A DNA stretch of 64,000 nucleotides, from contig OX638351.1 of assembly GCA_951813565.1 (NCBI GenBank), positions 2,720,001 to 2,784,000 on the forward strand, read 5' to 3'. A program made the translations under genes and the position numbers. This document shows, piece by piece, positions 15,467 through 63,993 of the stretch. This DNA is from an uncultured Poribacteria bacterium (GTDB lineage: Bacteria; Poribacteria; WGA-4E; WGA-3G). Each line of letters starts with the position of its first letter. The stretch's first letter is position 1. Below the pieces are notes generated by a model. It was not told where the DNA came from. It ran no database searches and saw nothing but the letters and a program-made list of their open reading frames with translations.

Positions 15467-15646
15467 CAGAGCCATTCAATTCTGCAGTAATTCTGCTTTT
15501 CTCTAAAACCTCTTTCTGTAGGAGCAGTCTCCTGGTCGCGACCTTTCGTCCGATGTCGCGACCAGGAGACCGCTCCTACAAGAAGAAAATCGGGCGGACA
15601 AGGTTTCCCTCCCACAAGAGGATATATCCTTAAATTGACACCTATG
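15467..15646. mobile_element. Chimeric MITE/REP cluster
   Basis: Left end CAGAGCCATTCAATT (family of 6678/37792); right end CTTAAATTGACACCTATG (family of 31643-31844); internal TGTAGGAGC...GCTCCTACA inverted pair. Confidence 0.6.
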
Positions 15647-15735
15647 AGGTTTCGTAAACTCTACCCAATCGACGATACTTTATGGCAGGGATAAATAGGA
15701 AATAGCGAGCCTATAAGCAGCTCTACTCCTAATAT

Positions 15736-16701
15736 TTATGTGTCCCGCTCTGAGATAAATCTTTCAATTTCTTGAGCCATTGGCAGCGCAGGAATTACGC
15801 CGATCTTCTGGGTTGCCAATGCTCCCGCTGCATTTGCATACCGCATGATGCTATCAAGACGATCTTTTTCAAGCGATGCTAAGTCAGCATGCGTCATTAG
15901 TTGCGTGAGCATAGCAGCGACAAATGCATCACCTGCACCGAGCGTATCCACTACTTCAACGGCAAAACCTTCAACATATCCTTCAGCGTTACCGTTTGTG
16001 TAATAACATCCACGCTCTCCTAACGTAACAACAAGCAATTTCACACCGAGTCCGAGAATTCGTTCAATACCTTGCTTCAATTTGACATCTCCTGTAACAA
16101 ACTCCCACTCTTCCTCTGATATCTTGACGACATCTGCATAGGGCATCACCTCCCATATCCAATGCTTTGCATCGTTAGCGTTGTCCCATAGCATCAAACG
16201 CAAATTTGGGTCATAAGAGATGGACGCGCCTGCGGATTTTGCAGATTGAATTGCTTTGAGTGTTGCTTCACGGGTCGGTGAATGACTGAGGCTAACAGAA
16301 CCGTAATGAAACAGTTCCGCAGATTGGATGTAGTCCACATCAATTTCATCCGGTGACAGTTGAATGTCGGCACCGGGATGCCGATAAAAAGTAATATCTT
16401 TCATGCCGTCAGAGCGTGTGGCAACGAAGGCTAATGTGGTACGAGAAGTCTCTCCTGCGATGAGATAAGTCGTATCAACGTTGTTCTGTTGAAGCGTTTC
16501 AGTCAGGAAACCACCGAACGGATCAGCACCGACTTTGCCGATAAACCCTGCATCCACACCGAGTTTGGCTAACCCGACAGCGACGTTAGCAGGCGCACCG
16601 CCAGGGGCTTTGACAAATCCCGGTGCTTCGGCAAGAGTTACATCGGGGGTTGTGGAAACAAAATCGATGAGAAGTTCCCCTATACATAGAGCTTTTGGCA
16701 T
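15736..16701 (-). CDS. PfkB-family carbohydrate kinase (fructokinase-like)
   Basis: PGGAPANVA, YDPNLR, VDTLGAGDAF. Confidence 0.92.
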   Translation of the reverse strand: MPKALCIGELLIDFVSTTPDVTLAEAPGFVKAPGGAPANVAVGLAKLGVDAGFIGKVGADPFGGFLTETLQQNNVDTTYLIAGETSRTTLAFVATRSDGMKDITFYRHPGADIQLSPDEIDVDYIQSAELFHYGSVSLSHSPTREATLKAIQSAKSAGASISYDPNLRLMLWDNANDAKHWIWEVMPYADVVKISEEEWEFVTGDVKLKQGIERILGLGVKLLVVTLGERGCYYTNGNAEGYVEGFAVEVVDTLGAGDAFVAAMLTQLMTHADLASLEKDRLDSIMRYANAAGALATQKIGVIPALPMAQEIERFISERDT

Positions 16702-16748
16702 AAATTGTAATTCCTTAAGGCACTTAAGTTTCTGTAGGCAAACATTTA

Positions 16749-17000
16749 TCAATGAGAATTTGCATAGGCATGTGTTAGGAGCATTTCTTTGGCAAGTTCC
16801 AAGACCTTGACTGCTTGATCACGGTTGACAGACGGAAAATCCTTCAAAAAATCATCAAGCGTTTCTCCACTCTCTAAATAGTCAATCAGATTTTTTATGG
16901 GAACACGGGTGTTTTTAAACACCGGAGTACCACTCATAATCTCGGCATCACATGTAATGAGATTGTCAACTGTCATGGTCGTTTGTTCATCAAATTTCAT
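16749..17000 (-). CDS. DUF433-family antitoxin-like protein
   Basis: IMSGTPVFKNTRVP...FLKDFPSV; overlaps a 13-codon DUF5615-like toxin stub MQILIDKCLP. Confidence 0.85.
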   Translation of the reverse strand: MKFDEQTTMTVDNLITCDAEIMSGTPVFKNTRVPIKNLIDYLESGETLDDFLKDFPSVNRDQAVKVLELAKEMLLTHAYANSH

Positions 17001-17038
17001 GAGTAAATTTCTCCTGTGAATGCAGTGCCTATATACTT

Positions 17039-17299
17039 GAGGGGTGTGCATAAATAATTCCGATGTTAAATATGCGCTTAAAGGTAGTCCGCACAGGCCG
17101 TGGGTTTCCGTCCACAAGTTCAAAGAGGCGCAGCATGCCACACGGGGAATGCCATAAGGCATTCGGACCGTTGATTTGGCGCATGCTGCGTTGATTTGGC
17201 AATGAATTGCGCGACTACAAACGCATTTCTATAAATCAAGCGGCACCTGGCGTCTGTTCCTGTCTGTGTTGATGCGCCAAATATTTATGCACACCCCTC
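17039..17299. mobile_element. MITE with GAGGGGTGTGCATAAATA termini
   Basis: Perfect 18-bp TIR; flanks ATATACTT/ATATACTC (7/8 target duplication); contains a REP and nested micro-hairpin modules. Confidence 0.8.
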
Positions 17300-17384
17300 A
17301 TATACTCAAGGATACTCTATAATTTTGTGGATATCAAGGTTAAGTAGCGCACTTAGAAAGAGAATTATTCTATTCACCCTCATA

Positions 17385-18470
17385 TCAAAATGTGGTTCGC
17401 AAGGTTTGTGCTTGCCCTGTTTCAGCGGAGCGGTATCCCGCATCAAAAATTTCTATCACATGCCGTGCATGCTCCGCAGTAACGATGGTAGGTTTGTCCT
17501 CACGTATCCAGTCAACAAGCTGCATAATATCTTCAAAAACGTGCGCTTCCTGTATGCTGCGATGTGCCCCCACGACGTGTGGTAATTCCCTTTTCGGTGC
17601 ATCAATCGGTTTGCCGTTAATGGTGCTGCCCTCAATTACACCTGCTGTACCGTTAATCGCTAATCCGCCTTTGATTGCGTGTCCAGCTGCTGCGCCATAG
17701 ATAAAGCCAAAGAAGGCATCACCGAAGTCAAGCAGAATAAAGGTGTTATCATCCATGTCGCACGGAAGCATCTCGCCTCGGAATTCGCGTTCTTTGACAC
17801 GCACACCAGAGAAAGCAGTCACTCGTTTCACAGGACCGAGAATGCCGGTCATTGTATGCAATCCGTAAACGGTCATGTCGTAGAGGGGACCTCCGCCCGG
17901 TTTGCGAAAGTACCACGCAGGGTTGATATTGGATAGGACATCGTCACCGTGCCGAACAGATTCACCTTCGTGGTATCTGCCAAAAGAGGATCCAGTGGCA
18001 GCCCATGTCAGTGTTCCGATTGCGCCATCGTTAATCAGTCTGCGAATCTCTTGGTGTATCGGACGCAGCATCTGTCCGGGAGAAGCGACTAATTTGACTC
18101 CCTTGCGCTTTGCCGATTCAATCAGGTCATCAGCCTCATCAACGGTAGTTGTCATCGTTTTGTTAAAATGCGCGTGGAGACCGTGTTCAATAGCGAGTTT
18201 TCCCTGCTCATAATGCAGACCTATGGGTGATGCGATGCTGACAGCATCAACGTGTTCGTCTGCTAAAAGTTCCTCAAAAGTTTCATAAGCATGCGGCACG
18301 TTGAATTTTTCGGATGCGGCTTGTGCTCTGCCGGGGACAGGGTCGCAGACAGCGGTCACCTGTAATCTATCTTGGACATCGTCTTGTGTGAGATGCGGCA
18401 GGATGCCGCGCACAGAGATACTACCGACACCGACGACTCCGATGCGCACCCTGTCATTAGTTGCCATCAT
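17385..18470 (-). CDS. Gfo/Idh/MocA-family oxidoreductase
   Basis: RIGVVGVG, ASPIGLH, GGGPLYDMTVY. Confidence 0.88.
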   Translation of the reverse strand: MMATNDRVRIGVVGVGSISVRGILPHLTQDDVQDRLQVTAVCDPVPGRAQAASEKFNVPHAYETFEELLADEHVDAVSIASPIGLHYEQGKLAIEHGLHAHFNKTMTTTVDEADDLIESAKRKGVKLVASPGQMLRPIHQEIRRLINDGAIGTLTWAATGSSFGRYHEGESVRHGDDVLSNINPAWYFRKPGGGPLYDMTVYGLHTMTGILGPVKRVTAFSGVRVKEREFRGEMLPCDMDDNTFILLDFGDAFFGFIYGAAAGHAIKGGLAINGTAGVIEGSTINGKPIDAPKRELPHVVGAHRSIQEAHVFEDIMQLVDWIREDKPTIVTAEHARHVIEIFDAGYRSAETGQAQTLRTTF

Positions 18471-18560
18471 ATTTCCTCCAAAGAAAACAAATTTTAGTTC
18501 AGCATATAATTATCCATACATTTTGTTCGCGTAGCATTTTCAAATATATTACTTGAATGT

Positions 18561-18593
18561 AAGAGGCGCAATGAATTGCGCGACTACAAACGC
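18561..18593. repeat. REP-like palindrome GCGCAATGAATTGCGCGACTAC (GTAG-type on the minus strand)
   Basis: Further copies at 61267-61294 and, interrupted, at 17123-17224. Confidence 0.8.
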
Positions 18594-18636
18594 CGTAACT
18601 TCAATAATAGCGTCTACTTATTATGCTTTACTAATA

Positions 18637-19521
18637 TTATTCCCTCCACGATGTTTCGTGTTGCCACCCGACAGCGTTTTTGAGTTTGTCGCAATTGATA
18701 AATGATTGATGTCCTTTTAGCATTCGGACTTTTGGGAGAAATTCCGGCTTAAAACGTTCAACCAATTCAAGGGAAGTTTCTAAAGCAGAAGTGTCATCTG
18801 CGTTGAGAAAATATACATCATGTGGCGGAAGTGTATCTGCTTTTTCCATGATCAAACGGTGCGCACTTGCGACGTCTTCGCTTCCGACCCAACACCAGAG
18901 CCATGGAGTCCAACCTGTTGTCGGTTTTGCATTTTCTGCCATCTGCTTTCTGCGTTCTTCTGGTGTGATACCGGCAGGGCGGGTGATATAGGTTCGGATA
19001 CCGTAAGCACGGGTATAACTCGCTAATAGGTCTTCACCGCAACGTTTAGAGAAACTGTAGGAATCTTCTGGATAGCACGGATGTTCTTCGTCTAAAGGCA
19101 GATAGTCAATCGGCATGTGTGTTTTGCTGATGCGGAACCCGTGCCCTAATGCGCAATTACTGCCGGACATCACCACCGTTTGAACATCAGCTTCAATTGC
19201 GGCTTGCATCAGATAGTAAGTGCCGAGCATATTCGTTTTGAAAGTTGCGTCAAAGGGGATGCCTTTCTCTGCAGCACCGGCACGCATATCTGGATGATCG
19301 ACGGGACCAGGCTGCGCGCCGAGGTGTTGGATTGCGTCTACGCCATCAACAGCGCGTTGACAGTCTTCAAAATTGTTTAGATCGCCTTGGACAAATGGCA
19401 GCTTAGAAAATTCATCGGGCGGTCGTCTGCGGGACATTAGGACAAGTGTATGGCGTTCTGCTAATTCTCGAATGACATACGTACCGAGTCTACCGCTTGC
19501 ACCAGTTATCAATACTTTCAT
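18637..19521 (-). CDS. NAD-dependent epimerase/dehydratase (extended SDR)
   Basis: ITGASGRLG, YSFSK. Confidence 0.88.
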   Translation of the reverse strand: MKVLITGASGRLGTYVIRELAERHTLVLMSRRRPPDEFSKLPFVQGDLNNFEDCQRAVDGVDAIQHLGAQPGPVDHPDMRAGAAEKGIPFDATFKTNMLGTYYLMQAAIEADVQTVVMSGSNCALGHGFRISKTHMPIDYLPLDEEHPCYPEDSYSFSKRCGEDLLASYTRAYGIRTYITRPAGITPEERRKQMAENAKPTTGWTPWLWCWVGSEDVASAHRLIMEKADTLPPHDVYFLNADDTSALETSLELVERFKPEFLPKVRMLKGHQSFINCDKLKNAVGWQHETSWRE

Positions 19522-19569
19522 GAAAATCCTTTCACATCAATTCAACGATGGTTAAATGGAAGAATTCAG

Positions 19570-19635
19570 TTGACAGGTGTTAGTGTGTTGTCTATTATTG
19601 TTATGGTATTATAGCACTACTAAAGATTTTGTCAA
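19570..19635. promoter_or_regulatory. Face-to-face divergent sigma70-type promoters
   Basis: Plus strand TTGACA-N17-TATTAT; minus strand TTGACA-N16-TATAAT. Confidence 0.55.
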
Positions 19636-19651
19636 GTGAACCGTATCTGTA

Positions 19652-19766
19652 GGGTGTGTAAAGTTTTTGTAGAAATCCGCACAACTCCTATTGTAGGGGC
19701 GGGACCCCGCCCTACAGTGGAAAACGCCGCGTAATCATCGCAATGTAACCAAATATTTACACACCC
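19652..19766 (+). mobile_element. Short GGGTGTGTAAA MITE
   Basis: GGGTGTGTAAA...TTTACACACCC; target duplication GTATCTGTA (19643-19651 and 19767-19775). Confidence 0.88.
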
Positions 19767-19789
19767 GTATCTGTAGAGGAGAAGTCTTA

Positions 19790-20824
19790 ATGTATAACGC
19801 AGAAAAACATTTTGGAAACTTATACGCTATTGTGCCGCGGAAATATGAATTTCAGGAAACGACACGAGAAGGATTGGTAGCATGGCAAGCCAATTTTCGT
19901 CCGGAATTGCGGGAAGTACTCGGTTTAGACAACATGGAATCTGACCTTGCTGGTTATGTCCCGAAAGCGGAACAACTGGAAGTTTTGGATATGGACAACC
20001 ATATTCGCGAGAGTTGGTATTTGTGGGTAGAACCGACAGTGCCGCTGCCGTTCTATCTGATCCGCCCGAAAACAATTGAAGGGAAAGTCCCACTAATCCT
20101 TGCACCGCATGGTCATAACCATCCGCATATTTACGCTGGTATTGCTCATTCTGAAAAAGAGGAGAAGGAGATGGTGGAAGGTGAACGTGACATTGCTCGG
20201 CAAGCAGCAGTGGAGGAAGGATATATTGCTATTGCACCAACAACACGCGCGTTTGGTGAAACACGCACCGAAGCGGATAAGCAGAACAATAGCACACATT
20301 CATGCCGACATCAGTTAGTTCATAGCATACTTGTTGGCAGAACCCCGATCGGTGAACGGGTGTGGGATATGTCGCGTCTCATTGATTGGGCAATAGCTAA
20401 TCTTCCGGTAGATGCTGAACGGATAGCGATTACTGGCAATTCTGGTGGTGGCACGGTGTCACTTTTCGCGGCGGCGTGTGAAACGCGCATTGCTGTGGCT
20501 GTGCCGAGCTGCTACTATTGCACGTTTGAAGGAAGCATCGGCACTATTCGACACTGTGAGTGCAACTATGTCCCTGGTGTGATGCGGTTAGGTGAGATGT
20601 ATGATGTTGCTGGGTTAATCGCGCCGCGTCCGTTTTGTGCAATTGCTGGACGGGATGATGGTATCTTTCCAATAGATCATGTAAAGTTCGCGTATGAACG
20701 ATTGAAGGAAATTTATACAGTCGCTGGTGTTGCGGATAGGTGTGAATTATTTATCGGTGATGGCGGACATCGCTATTACAAAGCAGGGGCTTGGCCGTTT
20801 GTGCGGCGATTTTTTGCGGAATAA
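19790..20824 (+). CDS. Alpha/beta hydrolase (dienelactone hydrolase/esterase-like)
   Basis: GNSGGG nucleophile motif, GRDDGIFP, GDGGH. Confidence 0.85.
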   Translation: MYNAEKHFGNLYAIVPRKYEFQETTREGLVAWQANFRPELREVLGLDNMESDLAGYVPKAEQLEVLDMDNHIRESWYLWVEPTVPLPFYLIRPKTIEGKVPLILAPHGHNHPHIYAGIAHSEKEEKEMVEGERDIARQAAVEEGYIAIAPTTRAFGETRTEADKQNNSTHSCRHQLVHSILVGRTPIGERVWDMSRLIDWAIANLPVDAERIAITGNSGGGTVSLFAAACETRIAVAVPSCYYCTFEGSIGTIRHCECNYVPGVMRLGEMYDVAGLIAPRPFCAIAGRDDGIFPIDHVKFAYERLKEIYTVAGVADRCELFIGDGGHRYYKAGAWPFVRRFFAE

Positions 20825-20825
20825 A

Positions 20826-22223
20826 CTAACGAGAGCCTTTTTTTATTGCCCACAACGTTTTCAAGATAATCTTTATATCCAGAGTAAGCGACCAGTTTTC
20901 AATATAGTAACGGTCATAGTTAACCCGATCTTCAAGAGAAGTATTGCCTCGTAAACCGTTGACCTGTGCCCAGCCAGTCATACCGGATTTGACGCGCTGT
21001 CGTGCCAGGTAATGTGGGACTGATTCTTGGAATGTCCCAATTAGTCCCGACATCTCTGGGCGCGGTCCCACGAGACTCATATCACCTTTAAGAACATTGA
21101 TAAATTGGGGTAATTCATCCAGACTCCAGCGTCTCAGAAACTTTCCGAGTGCAGTTTGCCGCGGATCGTCTGTTTTTGCCCACGTATGCCCAACGTTTTC
21201 TTCAGCATCAGCATGCATAGAGCGGAATTTATAGATTTTGAACCGCTTCCCTGCCCTACCGACGCGTTCTTGTCGGAAAATTGCTTTGCCGGGTGATGTT
21301 AGTCGAATAGTTGCCGCTATTATCAACATAAGAGGGCTTAATACTATCAATGCCAAAGAACTAAAAACGATGTCTACCAAACGCTTAACGATACCGCTTA
21401 CCCCTTGCATCGGTGTCTCGCGTAGTTGCAACATTGGTATACCGTCGAAAAACGTAACTGCTGTTCCACCACTGATAAATTCAGACAGCTCTGGTAGCAC
21501 ATTGATTTGAATGGGAACACCTTCACAAGCGTGCAGAATCTGTAGGATAGTGTCATTCGTTACCGTTGGAGATGCGATAAAAAGCATGTCAAGACGATGC
21601 ACTTGCACGAGTTCAAGAATGTCTTTACTATTGCCGAGATGTGGCATACGGTTTATCTCCGCATTTGCATCAATTATGCCTATTAATTTGTATCCACTAT
21701 TTGGTTTTTCATCTAAGGCATTGATGATTTTTTCGCCACGTTCGTCATAGCCTACGAGTGCTACACGACTCACGCCAACCCCTTGCGCTTGAACTGCTTG
21801 ACGGAAACGGTATAGGACAAGTCGTCCGAGGAACAACCAAACGAGGCTAAATCCTGTGGCAAGAAGCATTACCCACCGTGAATATGCATCGTGGTGAAAA
21901 ATAAAAAAGAGCACTGCTAACGTAGCAATAAGTGCGATAATTGAGGCTTTACAAAGCACCCAAAACGCTGAAAGCGTAGCATTACTTTCTGGACGGTAGA
22001 GTTTGAAACCTTTTAACGTCAATAACCAGATAATTGCTGTTACAGGAATTATCCGTAAGTAGTCGTCAAAGGGAGGTGTGCCTCCTTTGTGTAGTGCTAA
22101 CGCGTCAAGCCAACCTGATTCAAATCGCAGCCAATATGCTATGACAATTGCGGTGGCAATGAAACAGAGATCGCATAAAACTGTAAGTGCTATTAGCAGA
22201 TGATCAAGCGTTTTTTTGCTCAT
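20826..22223 (-). CDS. Undecaprenyl-phosphate sugar phosphotransferase (WcaJ family)
   Basis: N-terminal TM helices, KFRSM, SLDELPQFINVLKGDMSLVGPRPE, GWAQVNG. Confidence 0.92.
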   Translation of the reverse strand: MSKKTLDHLLIALTVLCDLCFIATAIVIAYWLRFESGWLDALALHKGGTPPFDDYLRIIPVTAIIWLLTLKGFKLYRPESNATLSAFWVLCKASIIALIATLAVLFFIFHHDAYSRWVMLLATGFSLVWLFLGRLVLYRFRQAVQAQGVGVSRVALVGYDERGEKIINALDEKPNSGYKLIGIIDANAEINRMPHLGNSKDILELVQVHRLDMLFIASPTVTNDTILQILHACEGVPIQINVLPELSEFISGGTAVTFFDGIPMLQLRETPMQGVSGIVKRLVDIVFSSLALIVLSPLMLIIAATIRLTSPGKAIFRQERVGRAGKRFKIYKFRSMHADAEENVGHTWAKTDDPRQTALGKFLRRWSLDELPQFINVLKGDMSLVGPRPEMSGLIGTFQESVPHYLARQRVKSGMTGWAQVNGLRGNTSLEDRVNYDRYYIENWSLTLDIKIILKTLWAIKKGSR

Positions 22224-22339
22224 GAGTGGCGTTTGCAGGCTTCCGTTGTTTGCTGTGCTAAACTTGCCTCTTATATGTCGTGGAATGCTTCATTATTATA
22301 CCGTGTTCTATTTTAGAAATCAACTTAAGACTTTGATCT

Positions 22340-22739
22340 GGGTGTGTAAATATTTGGTTACATAGGTTCAATTTGCAATAGACATTCTAATGATTTAATC
22401 TGCGTTGTGTTGTCAGAATCGCGGATTATCGCAGATTTATCGGATGACGCGGATTTTAAGAACTTTGTATCCGCACATTCAACGGACGCATGCACGCCTT
22501 CTGTTATTGACCGGACATTATGAAAACGACTTGTTGTTACCAGTATCCAATAATCCGTGCCATCTGCGTCATCCGATAAATCCGCGATTCAGAAAGTTGC
22601 GCGCGATGCCTCATCTGCCCAACGGACAAACATAAGATTTTTCCGCAGACCAATAACTCACAATTAAAACGTTATAATGTCTAATGATTACGCGGCGTTT
22701 CCACTGTAGGGCGGATTTCTACAAAAACTTTACACACCC
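22340..22739 (-). mobile_element. GGGTGTGTAAA MITE (inverted) containing a nested element
   Basis: TIRs present; target duplication CTTTGATCT (22331-22339 and 22740-22748). Confidence 0.88.
22380..22682. mobile_element. Nested MITE with AGACATT termini and 3-bp AAT duplication
   Basis: 17/20 TIR; the empty site is seen in the 63746 copy; internal inverted repeats of about 45 bp (GAATCGCGGATT...AATCCGCGATTC). Confidence 0.8.
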
Positions 22740-22981
22740 CTTTGATCTGGCAGAGACATTCAGTTTGATTTTCTGAGTGAAGTTTGGAAAAAATCAGGGT
22801 TACATACATAAAAATCGGGCGGACAAAGCCCTCCTACAAGAGAGGGAAAGGGTTGCTCCTACAAGGAGAGATATGATCGGAAGATTTTACCTATAAAGAA
22901 TTCGTGATTGGGTAGGAAACATTACTGATAAATTAATCACGATGTGCTATGCTATTTCTATATTTAAAAGGAGGGACAAAC

Positions 22982-24069
22982 ATGGCGAATAAAATAAAGG
23001 TGGGGATTGTTGGGGCGCATCGGGGAAGTTCTTATTTTCAACCGTTTAGCACGATAGCGGAAACCGATGTCACAGCGGTATGTGACATCAATGAGGCTAC
23101 ACTTCAAAACGTTGCAGAACGGTTTAATGTTCCACATCAATTTACAGATTATTCAGAAATGTTAGATGCGGTTGACCTTGTAGTACTTGCTACACCTGAG
23201 AACCTTCACGTTCCGCAGTCGATAGAAGCGTTGGAAGCAGGAAAACACGTCATCAGTGAGGTAACCGCTGCTGTCAAGTTAGAGGAATGTTATGACCTTG
23301 TTCGTGCGGTTCGGAAGTCGTCTGCTAAGTGGACAATGGCTGAAAACACCTGCTATTCTAAGCATAATGTGTTAATCCGCAATATGGTAGAGACAGGCAT
23401 GTTTGGTGATGTGTATTTCGGGGAAGGAGAGTATGTCCATAACATCAAATCACTTCATCACGATGCGGATGGCAACCCGACGTGGCGTTACTACTGGCAG
23501 GTAGGCATTAATCGATGCAATTATGCGACACACAGCCTCGGTCCAGTTCTGCAGTGGTTTGGTGAACGCGTCGTGAGTGTTTGTTGTCTCGGCACAGGGG
23601 TTAATACTGATCCTGAGCATGCGATGGAGGATACAGTGATGATGCTTTGTAAAACGGAAAGCGGTGGGTTAATCAAGATTCGGATTGATATGCTCTCGAA
23701 TCGTCCTGCAAATTCTTATTTTAGTCTGCAAGGGACGAAAGGGTGTTATGAGAGTTCACGTGGGTTGGGTGCTGCACCAAAGATTTGGTTGAGTGAGTTT
23801 GGCATAAGTGAGCAATGGCGACCGTTCTCTCAATTTGATGACTTGCTGCCTGAACGGTGGAAAAATCCGCCTGCTGAGGCGCAGAATGTTGGGGACCTTG
23901 GGGAATATTTTAAGGTGCGCGATTTGTTGATAGCATTCTCAACGATACACCGCCACCGATTGATGTTTATACATCTATGGATTTTACGGTGCCGGGGTTG
24001 GTTTCGGAACAATCTATTGCAAACGGCGGCGCACCGGTGGAAGTTCCAGATTTTCGGGAGGTTGATTAA
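22982..24069 (+). CDS. Gfo/Idh/MocA-family oxidoreductase with apparent -1 frameshift near 23923
   Basis: GKHVISEV, YATHSLGP; adding one T restores VRDFVDSILNDTPPPIDVY...VEVPDFREVD*. Confidence 0.8.
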
Positions 24070-24257
24070 TCGGAAACAACCTTTGCCTCTTCTTCTACAG
24101 GCTTAAAGACAAGTCCGCAGCTGCTACATCGGTATCCACTTTCCGGTTTTGACTCTACAACAGGGAATAGCATACCACAACAAGTTGGACAAGGTTCATC
24201 AATTTCCATTTCTGCCTGCTCCATTTCGCCAGAACGGTTTTCAAATTCTACAAGCAT
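24066..24257 (-). CDS. Small zinc-ribbon protein
   Basis: CPTC...CSSC; directly follows the rhodanese gene. Confidence 0.65.
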   Translation of the reverse strand: MLVEFENRSGEMEQAEMEIDEPCPTCCGMLFPVVESKPESGYRCSSCGLVFKPVEEEAKVVSD

Positions 24258-24260
24258 ATT

Positions 24261-24596
24261 TTAATATCTCCTTAGCGTTGGGTCAATTTCGACTGCCCAC
24301 TGGTCAATCCCACCAACAAGGTTTTTAGATTCGGTAAACCCATTTTGATGTAGATAGGCAGTAGCATAAAGACTACGTTGTCCATGATGGCAATAGACAA
24401 CAATTTCTTGGTCTGATGGGAGGTTGTCTATGTGATGCGGTAATGTGTTGAGTGGGACTAACAGCGCACCTTCAATATGCACGATGTCGTATTCATTTTG
24501 TTCACGGACGTCCAGTAACAACACAGACTCATTTTCGTCTAATTTCTGTTTTAGTTCTTGCGGTGAAATTTCGGGGAGTGAGGGTTTTGTCTGCAT
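24261..24596 (-). CDS. Single-domain rhodanese/sulfurtransferase
   Basis: LLDVRE, VVYCHHGQRS, LVGGIDQW. Confidence 0.92.
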   Translation of the reverse strand: MQTKPSLPEISPQELKQKLDENESVLLLDVREQNEYDIVHIEGALLVPLNTLPHHIDNLPSDQEIVVYCHHGQRSLYATAYLHQNGFTESKNLVGGIDQWAVEIDPTLRRY

Positions 24597-24991
24597 TATT
24601 CAGTTTCTTCCTCGTTTTGAATAGGTGGCAACGGTGCACATTCTGGACACGGACATGTCTCGCGCAGGATTTCAAATGGATAGATACCGGTATTATGTCC
24701 ATCGTCCCAACTGAATTGGAGCGCGTAACGACCAACTAACTGAATATCAAGCGGTTGAATATCGTCTGAAACTTCAATTAGCGTTATATCTCCATCGCCT
24801 TGTGGTGAAAAAAGAGAATGGACATCCTTACCTTCGTGCCGAATGATAGCACATTCAGCACACGGACACATCTGTCTGAGATAACGATACGGATACCAGC
24901 TGGCGTGTCCATCTTTCCATTCAATTTGGAAGGCATCATCATGTTTTTTGAGGGTTTTCGGACTTTTTTCAACTATTGTCATGTTCCTCAT
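24596..24991 (-). CDS. DUF971 / GBBH-like N-terminal domain protein
   Basis: LRQMCPCAEC, VGRYALQFSWDDGHNTGIY. Confidence 0.88.
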   Translation of the reverse strand: MRNMTIVEKSPKTLKKHDDAFQIEWKDGHASWYPYRYLRQMCPCAECAIIRHEGKDVHSLFSPQGDGDITLIEVSDDIQPLDIQLVGRYALQFSWDDGHNTGIYPFEILRETCPCPECAPLPPIQNEEETE

Positions 24992-25021
24992 CGTTCACAC
25001 AAATTGAGAGGTTCTGAAATA

Positions 25022-25137
25022 TTATAGTAAAATCCAATAATATGTTCACATTTCAATGAACAGCAATTCCCACACACATGCGCTGGCGAGGTTTCCTAAC
25101 CTCGCCAATGTAAAGGTAATTGTGAATTTTACTATAA
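25022..25137. mobile_element. MITE with TTATAGTAAAAT termini (IS630-like) carrying a REP-like hairpin
   Basis: Perfect 12-bp TIR; internal TGGCGAGGTTTCCTAACCTCGCCA. Confidence 0.65.
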
Positions 25138-25166
25138 GTGTAAAACATAAACCTTGATGTGAATAC

Positions 25167-25535
25167 TTAGGAAAAACCTATAATATTTTCAGAAGCACTC
25201 CGAATTCTTTCTAAAACAGCATCTACTGTTTCTGTTGGCAAGGAACAGATATACTCCGCTCTTCTCGCTCGCCAATCCATAGTCCGAATTTGATCTGCAA
25301 GGATAACCCCATCAACTTCTAACCCTTCAGGAATCGTAATTGCAAACGGATTCCATTGTTCTCTTGCACTGCTCCGCGTAATCGGACAAAGAACGACTAA
25401 ACTGGTTTTATCGTTAAAATCTTTGGTAGTTAAAACAACAGCAGGTCGACGACCAGCCTGTTCATGTTCAGTTTGAGGATTGAAGCCAATCCATATCGCA
25501 TCTCCGCGTAATGGAACGTTTGTTAACCCTACCAT
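25167..25535 (-). CDS. mazF: PemK/MazF-family endoribonuclease toxin
   Basis: RGDAIWIGFNPQ.EHEQAGRRPAVVL, CPIT, LADQIRTMDWRAR. Confidence 0.88.
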   Translation of the reverse strand: MVGLTNVPLRGDAIWIGFNPQTEHEQAGRRPAVVLTTKDFNDKTSLVVLCPITRSSAREQWNPFAITIPEGLEVDGVILADQIRTMDWRARRAEYICSLPTETVDAVLERIRSASENIIGFS

Positions 25536-25915
25536 ACTTCATTGCCCACAGGCGGGCCAGTGTCTATTTCATCATGTGAACTATTTTCTTTTACCTGATC
25601 TAATAGGTCTTTCAGTGTATAGTCGGGGCGTTTTATAGAATCGCTCCCTTTTTCTGCCCGCGGGGGACCGAATGGGACATCTTTTGCCTTCTTGCTGTTT
25701 GAGCCATCCTCTGGCATTTGTGCCAACAGATCTTCTAACGTACAGTCGGGGCGTTTTATAGAATCGCTCCCTTTTTCACGACGAGGTGGTCCAAACTCAC
25801 TTACTTCTTTCTCTGTTGGAGGCCGGTCTGTCTGTTCTCGGTTAACGGACTGCAAATAACAGAGATACGCTATTATGATCACGCATTCAGTGGAAGTAAA
25901 CATATTTTCTGACAT
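25529..25915 (-). CDS. Atypical MazE-like antitoxin with internally duplicated segment
   Basis: MazE-like C-terminus YTLKDLL...EIDTGPPVGNEVW overlapping mazF; no AbrB N-terminus recognisable. Confidence 0.65.
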   Translation of the reverse strand: MSENMFTSTECVIIIAYLCYLQSVNREQTDRPPTEKEVSEFGPPRREKGSDSIKRPDCTLEDLLAQMPEDGSNSKKAKDVPFGPPRAEKGSDSIKRPDYTLKDLLDQVKENSSHDEIDTGPPVGNEVW

Positions 25916-25973
25916 GATCCTACTCCTTATGCGTGTATACTTGAAATGACAGGATTTATTAGTAGGAAATGTG

Positions 25974-26183
25974 CTATACGACTACCCCAATCCGGATATT
26001 TTCTGGCAATGAGCGTCCTAACTCTTGATAGAGTTCCATGACTGCTTTAAAAGCATCTTTGACGTTTTCTAATGATTCGTCTAACGAATCGCCCTCGGTA
26101 ACCAATTCAGGCAACAGCGGAGAAGTCACTGTATAGCCGCCTTCAGGTTGTGGTGTCAGAACAAGGGGTATTTTGTATTCCAT
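25974..26183 (-). CDS. hicB: Orphan HicB-family antitoxin (short form)
   Basis: EGGYTVTSPLLPELVTEGDSLDESLENVKDA. Confidence 0.8.
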   Translation of the reverse strand: MEYKIPLVLTPQPEGGYTVTSPLLPELVTEGDSLDESLENVKDAFKAVMELYQELGRSLPENIRIGVVV

Positions 26184-26201
26184 CAGGACCTCATAAACGT
26201 G

Positions 26202-26501
26202 TTAAAAGATGCCGAGTTCGTCCTTCGCTTCTTCGCTCATCAATTCGGGGGTCCAACGCGGTGTCCAGACGACATTCACGTTGACCTCTTCAACACCATC
26301 CATCTGTTGTGTAACGTGTTGTGTGCCGTTGACAATCTGTCCACCAGCTGGACATCCAGGACTTGTTAGAGTCATCGTTATATCCACAGTTGTGTCGTCA
26401 ATGTCAACGTCGTAGATAAGTCCCATATCAACGATGTTGATACCGATTTCGGGGTCAATTATTTCTTTGATAGATTCTAAAACAGATTCTTCTGATACCA
26501 T
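26202..26501 (-). CDS. sufT: DUF59 / SufT-like Fe-S assembly factor
   Basis: DPEIGINIVDMGLIY, MTLTSPGCP. Confidence 0.88.
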   Translation of the reverse strand: MVSEESVLESIKEIIDPEIGINIVDMGLIYDVDIDDTTVDITMTLTSPGCPAGGQIVNGTQHVTQQMDGVEEVNVNVVWTPRWTPELMSEEAKDELGIF

Positions 26502-26551
26502 CTTTTTTCCTCCTATAGTGACTATGGTAATCCACTCTGATGAGGTAGTGG

Positions 26552-26863
26552 TTAATCAATGCTAACCAATATCTCATCGTCCTCAATTTTGACAGGAAAA
26601 CATTCAATGTCTTCAACAGCGGGCATGCAGAGTGCTTTTCCGGTTTTGACACAAAATCGTGCGCCGTGCCGTGGACATTCTATCGCATCCCCATCCAAAA
26701 AGCCTTCACCTAAAGGACCTCCATCATGTGTGCAAACATCTTCCATCGCGTAAAATTCGCCTTCCACGTTAAAGAGTAGCACAGGGACGAAATCTACTTC
26801 AACCAATTTTTTTGTGCCGGGTGGCACTTCACTTACTTTCGCTGTTTTGTAAAATTCTGCCAT
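26552..26863 (-). CDS. Rieske-type ferredoxin
   Basis: CTH...CPRH. Confidence 0.92.
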   Translation of the reverse strand: MAEFYKTAKVSEVPPGTKKLVEVDFVPVLLFNVEGEFYAMEDVCTHDGGPLGEGFLDGDAIECPRHGARFCVKTGKALCMPAVEDIECFPVKIEDDEILVSID

Positions 26864-26874
26864 TTGTTCCTTTC

Positions 26875-27264
26875 TTATTCATTTTCCTCGCCGGGCCAGC
26901 CTTTGATGCCGTAAGCACCCGCTTTTAAAACTTTGAGCGCCAATAAAGCGCATTTTACGCGGACGGGTCCTAACGGGATGCCGATCATATCCATAATGTC
27001 ATCTCTGGAAAGTTTTTTGACTTCCTCAAGGGATTTTCCTACAATCTCTTCAGTTAGCATAGAAGCGGTGGCTAAACTAATGGTACAGCCGTGTCCAGAA
27101 AAACGCACCTCTTTGATAGCGTCATCCTCAACAATCAGGTCAATCCGAATTTTGTCTCCACAGAGCGGATTATCCTCTTCGTGTGAGATATCTGGGTTTG
27201 GGAGTGTCCCATAGTTGCTGGGATTTTCGTAATGGTCCAATAGTTCTTCCTGATATATGTTCAT
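26875..27264 (-). CDS. sufU: SufU/IscU-type protein
   Basis: NPLCGD, GCTIS, RVKCA. Confidence 0.9.
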   Translation of the reverse strand: MNIYQEELLDHYENPSNYGTLPNPDISHEEDNPLCGDKIRIDLIVEDDAIKEVRFSGHGCTISLATASMLTEEIVGKSLEEVKKLSRDDIMDMIGIPLGPVRVKCALLALKVLKAGAYGIKGWPGEENE

Positions 27265-28520
27265 TTATTTCTCCGAGTCATGAGAGTCTGTGCTTTTTGC
27301 AGCCCTTCGTATAAACGATCTACATCTTCAAATGTGTTGTATAAGTAAAAACTGGCACGGGCAGTAGCGATAACATCCAATTTTTTCATCAGCGGTTGCG
27401 CGCAGTGATGCCCCGCACGGATTGCGACGTTATGCGTATCCAAAATGCCAGCGATGTCATGTGGATGGATGCCCTCCATATTAAAGGAGATGACACCTGC
27501 TTTCTGATGTGGTGCCGGTCCGTAAAGCGTGATGCCTTCAATTTCTTGTAGTTTATCATGTGCATATTTAAGCAGTTCCTGTTCATGCACATGAATTGAT
27601 GCTAATCCTGCTTGCGTAATATAATCTACGGCAGCACCGAGTCCGATTGCCTCAGCGATGCTTGGCGTGCCTGCCTCAAATTTTGCTGGCACATCTGCAT
27701 AGGTTGAAATATCGCGTTCAACAGAACGAATCATTGACCCGCCGCCGAGAAACGGTGGCATCTCCTCAAGTAGTTCCAATTTGCCGTATAGGACACCAAC
27801 ACCGGTCGGGCCACACATCTTATGTCCAGAAAATGCAAGAAAATCGCAATCTAACTGCTGCACGTCAACATGAAAGTGTGGAACAGATTGCGCTGCATCT
27901 ACAATAACCTTCGCACCTGCAGCGTGTGCTGCGTCAATAACAGACTGCATCGGGTTAATCGTGCCGAGAACGTTAGAGACATGCGTTATCGCAACCAACT
28001 TTGTTTTTTCGGAAAGCACATCGCGGAGCTGCGTAAAGTCAAGCAAGCCTTCATCGGTTATCTCAAGGAATCGGAGCGATGCGCCGGTGCGTTGTGCAAG
28101 CAGTTGCCACGGAACAAGGTTACTATGGTGCTCAAGATCAGTGAGAACGATCTCATCACCTTGTTGGATATTTAGACTTCCCCAACTGTATGCAACGAGG
28201 TTGATAGACTCTGTGGTATTCCGCGTAAAGACAATTTGGCTTGTCCGCGGTGCGTTAATCAACCGTGCGACTTTCTGTCGTGCTTTTTCGTATTGATCTG
28301 TCGCCTCCTCTGAAATCCGATAGATGCCGCGATGGATATTGGAACGATAGGTATCATAATACGCGTCCATTGCCTCAACAACAGGGCGCGGTGTTTGTGT
28401 TGACGCAGCACTGTCGAGAAATGCTAACGGCGGCGTGTCCGCAAAAATTGGAAAATCTTTGCGAATGGCTTGGAGATCAAGTGGACGAAAATCGGAGGTT
28501 TGCATTGTTTTTTGTGTCAT
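27261..28520 (-). CDS. sufS: Cysteine desulfurase, SufS type
   Basis: LDSAASTQ, EHHSN, SGHKMCGP, RAGHHCA. Confidence 0.95.
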   Translation of the reverse strand: MTQKTMQTSDFRPLDLQAIRKDFPIFADTPPLAFLDSAASTQTPRPVVEAMDAYYDTYRSNIHRGIYRISEEATDQYEKARQKVARLINAPRTSQIVFTRNTTESINLVAYSWGSLNIQQGDEIVLTDLEHHSNLVPWQLLAQRTGASLRFLEITDEGLLDFTQLRDVLSEKTKLVAITHVSNVLGTINPMQSVIDAAHAAGAKVIVDAAQSVPHFHVDVQQLDCDFLAFSGHKMCGPTGVGVLYGKLELLEEMPPFLGGGSMIRSVERDISTYADVPAKFEAGTPSIAEAIGLGAAVDYITQAGLASIHVHEQELLKYAHDKLQEIEGITLYGPAPHQKAGVISFNMEGIHPHDIAGILDTHNVAIRAGHHCAQPLMKKLDVIATARASFYLYNTFEDVDRLYEGLQKAQTLMTRRNK

Positions 28521-28536
28521 ATCAGCTCCAACTGAT

Positions 28537-29313
28537 TTAATTGTCGTTTTGACGGTTCGCAAGTTGTGCACGGAGTCGTTCTATCTCCGCTTTTAATTCT
28601 TGTCGTTTCTGCACTTCTCCTTCGACCCGTGCCTCTGCCGCCTCTTTAAGATGTTGTTCTTCTATAGAAGTTGTAATCGGGGTGCCATCAGGCAGATATG
28701 GACGTAAAAGTCTCACGTGTGTCGTCTGGTCCTCCTTCCACCGAAACCATAGATTTAAAGCTTCACTGAACAAACCGCCTTCCGCATCTGGCACTATCTC
28801 AACGATGTCACCTGAAGGACTCCGCCTCCACCCACGAAACTCTGCGGACTTCTCCATCTCAGGTTGATGGATGAAATACTCTTGAACACCTATATCATTC
28901 AGATACAACGCAACTTTTTTATTTCGATCTTGATGTGCTGTTGAATCAGAGAGAAACTCAAAAACAGCAATGGGTGCAGCGCCCTCCGCCCACGTATAGA
29001 AACTGCGGCGTAACGGGTATTTATCAACACCAAACACGATGTGGATATCAGGGGCGACACATTTTGTTATGTCCCCTTCGCTATAATAGATAAAACTGTC
29101 AACGGCAATGTGAACCAGATCGTTGATTGCGAAATACCTTTTGAGTTGGTCGGATAACGTGGTTATCTGTTCAGCGTGAAAATCGGTTTCAGCCATCGGT
29201 TCGTCGTCTTCACCCGGATACCCTTCAATATAGACGGTCGTTTTGCCATTCGCCTTTGGGAAGACTGGCATATATTTTCTCTGTTTGATTTGAAAGTCCT
29301 TTACGGTATTCAT
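28537..29313 (-). CDS. Uma2-family endonuclease
   Basis: EPMAETDFH, APD, VFEFLS, GVQEYF; coiled-coil tail. Confidence 0.82.
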   Translation of the reverse strand: MNTVKDFQIKQRKYMPVFPKANGKTTVYIEGYPGEDDEPMAETDFHAEQITTLSDQLKRYFAINDLVHIAVDSFIYYSEGDITKCVAPDIHIVFGVDKYPLRRSFYTWAEGAAPIAVFEFLSDSTAHQDRNKKVALYLNDIGVQEYFIHQPEMEKSAEFRGWRRSPSGDIVEIVPDAEGGLFSEALNLWFRWKEDQTTHVRLLRPYLPDGTPITTSIEEQHLKEAAEARVEGEVQKRQELKAEIERLRAQLANRQNDN

Positions 29314-29358
29314 GACTTTCTCCGTTGCGTATTATACCGTGCTTTGGTCGCCCATTTC

Positions 29359-29400
29359 TCACATAACTTCAAGGTTGTCGCCGAAGTATAGGGTGTTCAT
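29359..29400 (-). pseudogene. 5' stub of a site-specific DNA methyltransferase gene
   Basis: Translates MNTLYFGDNLEVM*; the ATG overlaps the stop codon of the upstream gene. Confidence 0.6.
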
Positions 29401-30041
29401 TGGATTGAACTCCCAAAATCTAAACTCTTTTGGAAAACTTCAAATGCGTTCGCTACTTTTTTCGCAATATCAGACGAAATCAGAAACCATTCGTTTCCTG
29501 GTGCATCCTGAATGTGCATATCCTTTTCTTTCAGAATAGAGTGTATAATTTGCTCTAAATTTCTGGGGTTTTCTGTGTACATAACAACTTCTGTTTTAGG
29601 TTCTTCTGGCATACCCGTCACCTGATCTTCTATTCTGCCCTGTGGATCACCGGTTTCAGTGTATCCGATCTTGCATGGCCACCTATCTTCACCTTTGAGT
29701 TCAGCCCGTTCTTTGTAAGCAGGATAATAGTAAACATAAACACACCCATTAGGATCAGGGGCTGGTTTTTTCTCGTTATCAATAATATCCCAGATACCAC
29801 TATTTTTGGGATAGTTCTCGTTATCGGCAAGGTTTTCTCTCTTGAGATTATTTAAGACATTTGTAACAGGATGGACTTTACTATTATATTTCAGTCCGCC
29901 CTTGTTTTCATGCACTTCATCAACCTTTTTAATAATATCTTGTTTCTTGACTCTATCTTGTCCTTTGAAAAACTCAAGGACAAGTTGTCGTGCCATTGGG
30001 GTATTCAAATGCTCTCCAACATGTTCATATTGGTTACTCAT
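29397..30041 (-). CDS. GIY-YIG / T5orf172-like nuclease domain protein
   Basis: GCVYVY, CKIGYT, LEQIIH, GNEWF. Confidence 0.82.
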   Translation of the reverse strand: MSNQYEHVGEHLNTPMARQLVLEFFKGQDRVKKQDIIKKVDEVHENKGGLKYNSKVHPVTNVLNNLKRENLADNENYPKNSGIWDIIDNEKKPAPDPNGCVYVYYYPAYKERAELKGEDRWPCKIGYTETGDPQGRIEDQVTGMPEEPKTEVVMYTENPRNLEQIIHSILKEKDMHIQDAPGNEWFLISSDIAKKVANAFEVFQKSLDFGSSIQ

Positions 30042-30090
30042 AAAAATATCTCCTTAAAGTGTCGAGTGAACAAGTAGTACGTCTGCATCT

Positions 30091-30126
30091 GATTTGTAGG
30101 TTGTCGCCTAAGTAGAGTTTGTTCAT
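30091..30126 (-). pseudogene. Second DNA methyltransferase 5' stub
   Basis: Translates MNKLYLGDNLQI; 25/29 nt identical to 29372-29400. Confidence 0.6.
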
Positions 30127-30128
30127 AC

Positions 30129-30956
30129 TTACCTTGATAAAGGAACTTTAATCCTAATTATTTTCTCGTCTTCTACACTGCATTTTGAACCGAACATACT
30201 ACTCCAATTCCTATGTTTCAGATATTCAAAAAAACCTTCAACCGGCTTATTTTCACATATTGATAATAACTCCTTACCAATACTTGTAAGTGCTATAGAA
30301 CCAAGACTCATGTTATCGTTGTCGTCCCCAGCATTCATATACTCTAATTTTTTATGAAAATAAAATATGGAAACTGATTCACCAGGGTTTAGACGCGGTT
30401 CCTGAGGTCTGGTTGTTCCTCTGCCTCCTCCCCAAAAAGTAGCACTTTCAATGACGTTAAGAGTGCAAAGATGTTCTAATACCTCTGAATTGATTCCATT
30501 CTGTGTGTAAATTTCATGACTTGGACGATCTATTAATGGAACCTGCTCGGAGTTTATATTACAAATAAAACCACAAAGAGATATAAACCATTCAGCATCC
30601 TGTTTTCCGAAATTTTCTAACGAGTTAACTGTTAATTGTGAAAAACTACCCGGCGTATCTGATTCTCTTGCCAAAATCCTTGACCATAAATCTTGCACAT
30701 CAGCATCAGACACTGTCTGGCACTTATCCAAAAAATTTAAAAACCATCCACTATCTACATTAAGCGAAATAGAACCTGATTGACGACTCTTGGTTCTTGC
30801 CCCTTCTATTATGCTGCACATATTCATAGCGTGAATCAAATCACGCTTTTCGTTCCATCTCCTTAATGTGCCTTCAGATAAAGCAGATACACCCTTCGAT
30901 AATTCTCGAATTGCTGTGTCAGCAACTTTTCCCCATCCCTCCAATTCATTCTGCAT
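30129..30956 (-). CDS. DUF2806-domain protein
   Basis: WFLNFLDKCQTVSDADVQDLWSRILARE..PGSFS; AT-rich. Confidence 0.75.
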   Translation of the reverse strand: MQNELEGWGKVADTAIRELSKGVSALSEGTLRRWNEKRDLIHAMNMCSIIEGARTKSRQSGSISLNVDSGWFLNFLDKCQTVSDADVQDLWSRILARESDTPGSFSQLTVNSLENFGKQDAEWFISLCGFICNINSEQVPLIDRPSHEIYTQNGINSEVLEHLCTLNVIESATFWGGGRGTTRPQEPRLNPGESVSIFYFHKKLEYMNAGDDNDNMSLGSIALTSIGKELLSICENKPVEGFFEYLKHRNWSSMFGSKCSVEDEKIIRIKVPLSR

Positions 30957-31061
30957 TATTACTATTCCTCCTTATTGGCAAGCGGGTCTAACGCCTTTAT
31001 GCAGTAAGTTTGTTGGATTTAGCAAACCCTACCTTACTTACAGACTATCGAATGCGCGGTT

Positions 31062-31433
31062 TCAACGTCTCTGCTGCTCAATAAAACCTATTTTTATATG
31101 TATTGTTTTATGGAGAAATATACGATTATATTCTTGGAACCCGCCTATCGCCATTCTACGACCCATAGACGCTGTTTCACTAGGAGGTTTTAACAATCTG
31201 ATATCCTTTTTATATTCATATCCAAGCAAATCTTTTATGTTATAGTAAATGTTCAAAGCAATTTCTTCAGCTTTGATGTTAGAAACAAGTCGTTGAAATT
31301 TCTGTGGGCTGCCTTCATAAGGCGGATATTCCACTGAAATTTCAAACCAAGGAGGATCTGTTTCTTCTTCAACAATAGCAATGTTGAAATTGCTTTCTGA
31401 ATTCATAGCAGTAATAAGATTTCCTACAGCCAA
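31062..31433 (-). CDS. Hypothetical protein (AT-rich)
   Basis: 123-aa ORF co-oriented with neighbours; no recognisable motif. Confidence 0.5.
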   Translation of the reverse strand: MAVGNLITAMNSESNFNIAIVEEETDPPWFEISVEYPPYEGSPQKFQRLVSNIKAEEIALNIYYNIKDLLGYEYKKDIRLLKPPSETASMGRRMAIGGFQEYNRIFLHKTIHIKIGFIEQQRR

Positions 31434-31458
31434 TTCTAATTGTTTTATGATGGTAGCT

Positions 31459-31642
31459 GGGTGTGTAAAGTTTTTGTAGAAATCCGCACAACTCCTATTG
31501 TAGGGGCGGGTCTCCGGGGAATGCCAAAAGGCATTCGGACCCGGTGAATGACTAAATGTCGTTCATACCGTTGATTTCTTGATTTGGTGCCTGCCCGTTG
31601 CATGGCACGTCCTGCGCAGTGGCGGGGCACAGGGACCCCGCC
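31459..31642 (+). mobile_element. Truncated GGGTGTGTAAA MITE with REP pair and micro-hairpin inserts
   Basis: Left end matches the 19652 and 63746 copies; right part replaced by the next element. Confidence 0.8.
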
Positions 31643-31844
31643 CATAGGCGTCAATTTAAGCACACAATTACCAGATTGCCTCTTGTGGGAGGGCTTTATA
31701 AGCCCGATTTATATGTATTTATCGGGGTTGAAAACCCGACAAATGCCAAAAAGCGCATTTGGCGTTGATTTGGCAGCATGCCAAACGCGCATGCTGCGTT
31801 GATTCACTCCCACAAGAGGGTATATCCTTAAATTGACGCATAAG
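31643..31844. mobile_element. MITE with GCGTCAATTTAAG termini
   Basis: CATAGGCGTCAATTTAAG...CTTAAATTGACGCATAAG (16/18); internal CCTCTTGTGGGAG...CTCCCACAAGAGG REP pair. Confidence 0.72.
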
Positions 31845-32039
31845 GTACGTTTTCCTAACTGCTCCATAAATATGAATCAAGTTAATGTGGTATTATATAA
31901 AAATTAAAAACAGATTAGGTAATTTAGTAGAAAAGTCCGGTGCGGTTAGGAAATCGTACCTACCGGGTTTAGGAAATTTAGAATTACCGAATTAAAATCT
32001 TCATGAAAGCGCGCATACCGTTGTTTTTAGGTATAGGTT

Positions 32040-32381
32040 TTACCTGCTTGGGAAGCCGATATTAACAGGAGCAGTATCGTGGCTTTCGCATGCCTGGTCG
32101 GTTGGGACATCGGTTTCAGCTTCGTTAGCTGCGACAATACCTTCCTCAAGCAGATATTCCTCCACTTCATCGCCGCTAACATCGGCAAGAATGATGTCGT
32201 CAATTTGGACACAAGGCTGATAAGGTTGCCGTGTCTTCTGAACCATTTCACGATAGTTGTCTTCGTTGTTGATGATGTCTCTGTCTTCATATTCCAAATT
32301 GTATTTGGCGAAAATGGCACGAACACCGTTGCTCCAGCCACAGACAGGTTTCATGTAAGCGATAATTTTGGGTTGATCCAT
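32040..32381 (-). CDS. Monothiol glutaredoxin-like protein
   Basis: YMKPVCGWS active site, YQPCVQID. Confidence 0.8.
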   Translation of the reverse strand: MDQPKIIAYMKPVCGWSNGVRAIFAKYNLEYEDRDIINNEDNYREMVQKTRQPYQPCVQIDDIILADVSGDEVEEYLLEEGIVAANEAETDVPTDQACESHDTAPVNIGFPSR

Positions 32382-32488
32382 TGTAGTGACTCCTTTTCAT
32401 TATACCAAGTTAATATGATTTGAAGTTCTATGATTATGTCATGTGTGCGAGGCACGGAGACCTCGCGCTACATATCAGGTTAATTGGA

Positions 32489-63745: not shown

Positions 63746-63993
63746 GGGTGTGTAAAGTTTTTGTAGAAATCCGCACAACTCCTATTGTAGGGGCGGGTTT
63801 CCGTGCCTGCCTGTTGCATGGCACGTCCTGCGCAGTGGCGGGGCACCAAATCAAGAAATCAACGGTATGAATAACATTTAGTTATTCACCGGGTATGAAT
63901 GCCTTATGGCATTCCCCGGGACCCCGCCCTACAGTGGAAAACGCCGCGTAATCATTGCAAATTGAACCTATGTAACCAAATATTTACACACCC
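63746..63993 (+). mobile_element. Full-length GGGTGTGTAAA MITE with REP pair and micro-hairpin inserts
   Basis: TIRs present; ATCCTTT repeated in both flanks (right copy cut by the window end). Confidence 0.88.

Follow-up and report, generated by a model that had tools for sequence, protein, structure and literature searches.

Nested hairpin modules in the window

The window, the whole 64-kb stretch of DNA analysed here, contains a GTAG-REP that is interrupted by two hairpin modules, one of them lying in the loop of the other (Table 1). As the initial annotation had claimed, the interruption is a single 69-nt insert (17130–17198), and its excision in silico restores exactly the REP that stands empty at 18561–18593 and has 32 exact copies in the genome. 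The nesting of Y in the loop of X is likewise secured by their solitary forms elsewhere, with 8 genome copies of uninterrupted 34-nt X and 16 of 35-nt Y. REP with X alone occurs twice in the genome, the X+Y nest nine times and the full 102-nt composite seven times, and each stage of the focal nest (empty REP, REP+X, REP+X+Y) is present elsewhere in the genome. Across the 5.43-Mb genome, the focal REP site is empty in 135 copies and filled in 84; of the filled copies, 20 hold a single 34-nt unit and 13 hold 69 nt.

Table 1. Coordinates of host repeats, modules and sister units (window positions unless a genome is named)
Feature	Position	Strand	Remarks
3′ end of host GTAG-REP	17123–17129	−	Joined to 17199–17224, gives the intact REP; on the REP strand, lies to the right of the insertion
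Outer module X, tag-first	17130–17198 (17130–17143 + 17179–17198, 34 nt)	−	At C|G of the REP
Inner module Y, 35 nt	17144–17178	−	In the loop of X, orientation as X
5′ part of host REP with GTAG foot	17199–17224	−	CTAC at 17215–17218 on +
Empty host REP	18561–18593	−	Identical to the excised form; 32 exact genome copies
Module Y split by Z module	31516–31586 (Z = 31542–31578)	−	Z at the hairpin foot of Y
Module W, 35 nt	31738–31772	−	In tandem with X
Module X with TG start	31773–31806	−	First unit in a GTGG REP
Z-type module split by second Z module	63847–63917	+	Tag-first on +; doubled tail
Sister unit sites	G000:C1:143640–143720 and about 90 others; L227–L238 (G017, G014, G026)

Other modules of the window show further arrangements. 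The Z module within the split Y replaced one base and left a doubled tail; the split Y itself sits in a GTAG REP, and its junction class, A|GA, comprises 3 contexts and 33 copies. The uninterrupted X placed earlier at 31773–31806 is present as a module, but it differs at three positions and its end is CA, not TG. The count of eight tails in the window was correct, whereas the view that the modules are alike only in length, hairpin and tail had to be abandoned: they belong to one hairpin superfamily, in which 583 hairpins comprise 189 distinct ones. Taken by itself, GTTGATT shows no enrichment in the window (17 occurrences versus 15.1 expected), and a search of window positions 16500–32500 against Rfam gave 0 matches at E ≤ 1. 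Logan contigs of four runs over positions 15500–33000 break at repeats and so reveal neither circle junctions nor strain polymorphism at the focal REP; go-back joints in these contigs are accounted for by arrays elsewhere. Separately, positions 29516–31267, with a TIGR03899-like gene (30129–30956), are almost uncovered in three of four runs, which suggests a strain-variable island.

Unit anatomy and genome-wide abundance

Read tag-first, the unit consists of two variable bases, the tag AATCAAC (complement of the GTTGATT tail), a 25–27-nt hairpin and a closing G that can pair with the last C of the tag, 33–36 bases in total. The genome, G000, carries about 600–900 copies, depending on the pattern; a family-specific pattern yielded 929 copies in 587 clusters and a stricter parse 686 units in 590 chains. 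The scan of the genome for tail plus hairpin that had been proposed earlier, run as a family-blind fold test, located the enrichment in the tag beside a hairpin: AATCAAC adjoins a hairpin in 583 of 2358 cases, and five permuted tags do so in 4/839 to 10/564 (0.3–1.8%). The tag is invariant over 189 hairpin variants with co-varying stems, and also across the genus. At the opposite end, a G comes next after 540 of the 590 chains, so that the hairpin-foot end is fixed.

Units occur singly, not as inverted doublets, and chains run head-to-tail. The tandem linker is C+CA in 92 of 92 cases, because every insertion at C|G re-creates its site. Only 6 of 929 copies fall inside long-ORF interiors, which cover 71% of the genome. 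By a crude test, the flank is repeated for 543 of 587 clusters versus 490 of 1000 intergenic controls; near-unique flanks are found in 29 copies, and the hosts comprise dozens of unrelated sequences. Twelve copies of the main unit, and two of the sister unit described below, are symmetric and double-tailed. The GC skew of the genome is too irregular for a test of lagging-strand bias.

Distribution and a sister unit

A narrow pattern detects the unit in 33 of 36 congeners and in 0 of 24 genomes of other genera in the order, and a looser one finds 2–16 matches in five low-copy congeners, including three that were blank under the narrow pattern. The public records listed as carrying the unit number 80, with at least 114 loci; 79 bear the name Candidatus Poribacteria and one that of an uncultured bacterium. 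Viral contigs gave 0 matches to the unit. Runs containing the window include sponge metagenomes. The element is non-coding, restricted to the genus and composed of a tag and one hairpin.

The same hairpin family is also found with the tag AATCAT, in 94 of 3784 cases in G000 compared with 0.1–0.2% in controls. This sister unit is present in 38 of 39 congeners, with up to 281 matches, and lone AATCAT matches in other genera lack the hairpin and are attributed to chance. It nests almost exclusively in the arm of a main module, following the AAT, where 2–4 bases are replaced. A host arm with ACT gives a sister unit with an ACT tail, which indicates that this part of the sister unit is borrowed from the host.

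Junctions and loss of target bases

Following excision in silico, the exact 2 × 11-nt join is found elsewhere for 333 of 929 copies, compared with 5 of 1000 random positions, some of the 333 joins being shorter tandem arrays rather than empty hosts. The alignment of filled against empty sites that the initial annotation had called for was productive: precise pairs exist genome-wide, an empty form being known for 96 of 239 distinct contexts (null, 65/2000) and none for the other 143. Fifty-nine of the 96 read as clean insertions, 34 of these being CA-start at C|G; the clean rows include five ‘AG’ contexts, possible parse artefacts, to which we attach no interpretation. The remaining 37 lose or replace 1–4 target bases relative to the commonest empty form. 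Target duplication, said to be absent, was indeed not seen, but at many sites the insertion is not clean; boundaries, whose raggedness was to speak against mobility, are precise at the hairpin foot and ragged at the tag end, with target bases often lost. Copies nested in the loop of another module have the orientation of their host in 37 cases and the opposite one in a single case, a bias that, given the palindromic C|G site, points to a single-stranded process. Taken together, it is very probable that the unit has moved as one piece.

The commonest junction class is C|G, with 34 contexts. In several REP families, an empty GT-A-GG corresponds to a filled GT-G-tag-hairpin-G-GG in which the A is lost (9 contexts in G000 and at least six families in relatives). 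On the other strand, the fixed junction of this GTAG class is CC|TAC, which is the iREP-II site cleaved by E. coli TnpA-REP according to the accessible text of PMC3333891. Precursors with GTGG instead of the A-bearing sequence number 0 versus 234 with long context, and 25 versus 268 and 47 versus 62 with short context; as GTGG precursors are present with short context, this alternative source of the lost A is less likely rather than refuted.

The two bases preceding the tag vary with the base in front of them. CA is found after C in 31 of 34 contexts and after G in none, whereas TG, CG or GG is found after G in 43 of 71 contexts and after C in 10; these counts of donor-flank matching come from 117 contexts that are not mutually independent. 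The GA-start unit occurs in G000 only in doubled tails, after ...CAA, and in G017 it is found in a new REP after ...GAA, with the A replaced (87 of 88 empties carry A). Such tracking, along with the move of the GA-start unit, suggests that the donor supplies the pre-tag bases to the target and that closure at the tag end uses a short match. One lineage inserts after a non-C base.

Much of the copy number is passive multiplication inside whole composite repeats: at orthologous sites, species differ in whether they have the entire composite. A cross-species comparison gave 126 matches in 114 loci, of which 35 have flanks that align to G000, and at the readable sites the whole composite is mostly missing from G000. 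One degraded case (L162) resembles a module-sized insertion in unique DNA.

Candidate enzymes

The ten Y1 matches of G000 represent IS605 TnpA, subclass 1.2 and RAYTs, of which two are intact and a third is broken. A RAYT/TnpA(Y1) gene flanked by the modules, which the initial annotation had proposed to look for, did not emerge: in the 31 loci read of 51, the unit is nowhere the cognate flanking repeat of a Y1 gene; each RAYT/TnpA locus read has other repeats, and units occur only inside or beside those. No IS ends in the unit among the matches listed for the 255 merged long-repeat intervals of the genome. Eighteen genes have units on both sides; judged by the first 60 residues, only cas1 resembles a nucleic-acid enzyme.

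An intact RAYT of one clade is present in 6/6 of the highest-copy genomes; the corresponding figures are 4/6 for Cas1, 3/6 for IS607, 2/6 for RT and 0/6 for IS110. RAYTs of this clade are thus the only ones among the tested enzymes found in all six, and genomes with the clade have a higher copy number (median 29 versus 13.5, 17 versus 20 genomes, p = 3e-4). This link is confounded by the movement of the host repeats by RAYTs and by the non-independence of related genomes; a RAYT that moves only hosts would give the same association. In G017, a single contig, the RAYT of this clade is the only Y1 match. The clade is also present in other genera that lack the unit, and no Y1/RAYT match was found in two genomes that have the unit, G010 and G023, the latter being a single contig of 92% completeness with 31 matches.

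The guide rule, in the pairing scheme applied here as general background, fits the resident IS605/IS1341 ends (AAAC/TTAG, AAAA/TTAT, AAAT/TTAA, GAAT/TCAA, CAAG/TGAC), which serve as the positive control, and predicts no module junction. The principle that cleavage or target sites can be predicted from a guide 5′ of the hairpin is set out in the accessible part of PMC8266576. An IS200/IS605 mechanism, as proposed earlier, therefore suits the IS605 ends of the genome and not the unit junctions; moreover, TTGAT and TCAA, invoked as the cleavage motifs linking the two, occur at no junction. Accumulation in REPs and in one another without duplication was borne out, and the picture of a minimal single-hairpin unit moved by an HUH enzyme holds in that the unit is mobile and strand-specific but fails to find a cognate HUH gene. 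An HUH enzyme remains the best guess, by elimination and from the position of the sites, not from a cognate match.

Several other loci were noted in the survey. The IS605/IS1341 families have about 28 copies on G000:C1, with guide-rule ends and different targets, TTAG, TTAT and TTAA (e.g. 228254–230012, L002), and three IS607 copies are present in G000. Genes for subclass-1.2 TnpA (L006, L007, L035–L046) have palindromic repeats of their own on both sides, in inverted orientation; according to the available text of PMC6006769, the subclass is without REPs. In L007, two copies of the beginning of the downstream gene (about 1245–1310 and 2065–2130) enclose a broken subclass-1.2 TnpA region. L018:1066–2601 encodes a Drt4 antiviral reverse transcriptase, above the NCBIfam cut-off. 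A Type III-like CRISPR locus (G000:C1:3988990–4005226, L019) has a separate RT gene beside cas1, and modules flank cas1. A CRISPR-like array at G000:C1:2830673–2832349 consists of about 26 repeats of 30 nt; none of the neighbouring ORFs is recognisable as a cas gene, and beside the array lies a gene of about 518 aa, the start of which we take to be RRXRR/HNH-like (IscB-type).

Proposed mechanism and alternatives

Our preferred reading, for which we consider the chances evenly balanced, is that the unit is a strand-specific micro-element copied or strand-transferred as ssDNA into nicks made by RAYT (HUH Y1) in host repeats. The RAYT would nick the host repeat, leaving the hairpin-first strand with a 3′-OH, usually after C, onto which the module would be joined, or copied, starting at the hairpin foot and ending with the tail. 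Closure of the other end would follow at a match of one or two bases between donor flank and target, often with loss of the base that had carried the 5′-phosphotyrosine. With closure on the donor flank, the two pre-tag bases would be inherited from the previous site. Copying primed by a 3′-OH has been proposed for BIMEs (PMC3333891, accessible part).

Movement by excision, or peel-and-paste, is rather unlikely in our estimation. Here, as in the model of the initial annotation, a cognate HUH enzyme, diverged, lost or otherwise missed, would bind the tag and hairpin, excise a 33–35-nt single-stranded circle and reinsert it by strand exchange. Such an enzyme could explain the strand specificity (37 versus 1), the lack of duplication with 59/96 clean contexts, and the conserved single-stranded tag 5′ of the hairpin and T-rich loops, as in REP and IS200/IS605 ends. 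However, pure strand exchange loses no target base, yet 37/96 contexts do; furthermore, the two junctions lack a common cleavage step, the guide rule fails, and no cognate gene was found among the 51 Y1 loci, 31 of which were read flank by flank.

The unit might also spread with no dedicated enzyme, by replication template switching or gene conversion at hairpin-stalled forks over 1–5-base matches, most copies being passengers of RAYT-moved repeats. Microhomology and small deletions at the tag end agree with this, the symmetric double-tailed copies (12 main, 2 sister) resemble fold-back correction, the sister unit borrows AAT or ACT from the host arm, and whole composites, of which the focal one has 7 copies, are present or absent at orthologous sites. 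Nevertheless, the hairpin-foot end is fixed, the hosts are dozens of unrelated sequences, and 29 copies have near-unique flanks. Moreover, a tag that is invariant over 189 hairpin variants and across the genus implies selection by a recognising factor, and we hold enzyme-free spread to be unlikely.

It is very improbable that another integrase is at work, be it an RT acting through an RNA intermediate, Cas1-Cas2, an IS110 bridge recombinase, an IS607 serine recombinase, an integron integrase or an IS91-type Y2 enzyme: the cas1 beside the RT has units on both sides, and we presume some likeness of the unit length to CRISPR spacers, of the GG-rich right flanks to the IS607 core and of the AAC/G closing pair to attC, but RT, Cas1, IS607 and IS110 are each absent from several high-copy genomes or from G000, IS607 ends lack the tag, the integron integrase stays below the cut-off in the profile search, and no unit occurs among the spacers of three CRISPR arrays. 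The search for IS91-type Y2 gave no match, its control being equally silent; Cas1, RT, IS110, IS607 and integron integrase are largely excluded as present-day drivers.

Returning to insertion at RAYT nicks, a bolder and more doubtful version would make the unit a hyperparasite of REP transposition: an enzyme-less DNA of 33–36 bases that would insert at the nicks of several unrelated RAYT/TnpA repeat systems, overwrite the nicked base, be able to delete the GTAG guide of the host, ride on the spread of its hosts and in turn be parasitised by a 28-base, tag-borrowing unit. If true, this would be nick-capture mobility, distinct from peel-and-paste. For the question of how REPs and other very small bacterial repeats move in vivo, the hundreds of natural empty and filled junctions in several host repeats are a record of the chemistry. 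If nick capture holds, DNA near the lower size limit for mobility would spread without a cognate transposase, and the unit would be a minimal single-strand insertion module.

Comparison with known systems

Among the matches listed in searches of the open literature, none describes the unit, and the AATCAAC tag is absent from the two supplements of PMC6006769. A close likeness is to REP, REPIN and BIME repeats with RAYT, which, in the accessible parts of the sources, are short, extragenic hairpins bearing a conserved single-stranded 5′ tag, in hundreds of lineage-restricted copies, with no duplication and with tandem arrays (PMC3333891, PMC8266576, PMC3116915, PMC3733652, PMC6006769). Unlike these, the unit is tagged by AATCAAC and not by GTAG, GTGG or CGTC, moves as one hairpin rather than an inverted doublet, has no cognate RAYT, and invades REPs, whose GTAG foot it can destroy. 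The GTAG class of the unit agrees with RAYT cleavage at CC|TAC, but the commonest class, C|G, matches none of the TnpA-REP cleavage steps given in the accessible literature (C|T, C|A, C|C).

IS200/IS605 ends share a hairpin with a 5′ single-stranded leader, and AAAT/GAAT occur both in the tag and as resident guides. In the unit, however, AAAT/GAAT lie four bases from the stem and predict no junction, and there is no fixed tetranucleotide target. Instead of the two subterminal palindromes of IS200/IS605 or PATE, the unit has a single hairpin, and the resident IS605/IS1341 ends differ from it; insertion is not uniformly clean as in those elements, given the 37 of 96 contexts that lose or replace 1–4 bases. 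PATE and SMR-A of Haloquadratum are likewise transposase-free and cause no duplication, a 52-bp terminal-only PATE exists, and SMR-A, of about 110 bp, targets other palindromic elements; PATE ends are IS605-related and SMR-A has terminal inverted repeats, whereas the unit has neither (PMC3119063, accessible part). As for MITEs, only 12 copies are double-tailed and there is no duplication. With respect to integron cassettes and attC, no integrase match exceeds the cut-off, and the junctions are not at G|TT.

Nor is the unit the smallest mobile repeat, as the SDRs of Nostocaceae, described by Elhai et al. in 2008, are reportedly 21–27 nt long. SDRs resemble it as very small mobile repeats of obscure mechanism, in the available accounts that cite them (PMC3116915, PMC5861425), and SDR5 inserts into another repeat, HIP1 (PMC5861425, accessible part). 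They differ in phylum and target. SDRs and SMR-A are the nearest precedents for tiny repeats that enter other repeats.

On the features tested, the match to a described REP or PATE family that was to count against novelty did not appear. Collectively, the unit is a real, very small non-autonomous hairpin element, undescribed in the literature searched, with its enzyme a candidate only. It fails membership of REP/REPIN, PATE and MITE on the tested features and functions like a REP-scale non-autonomous element.
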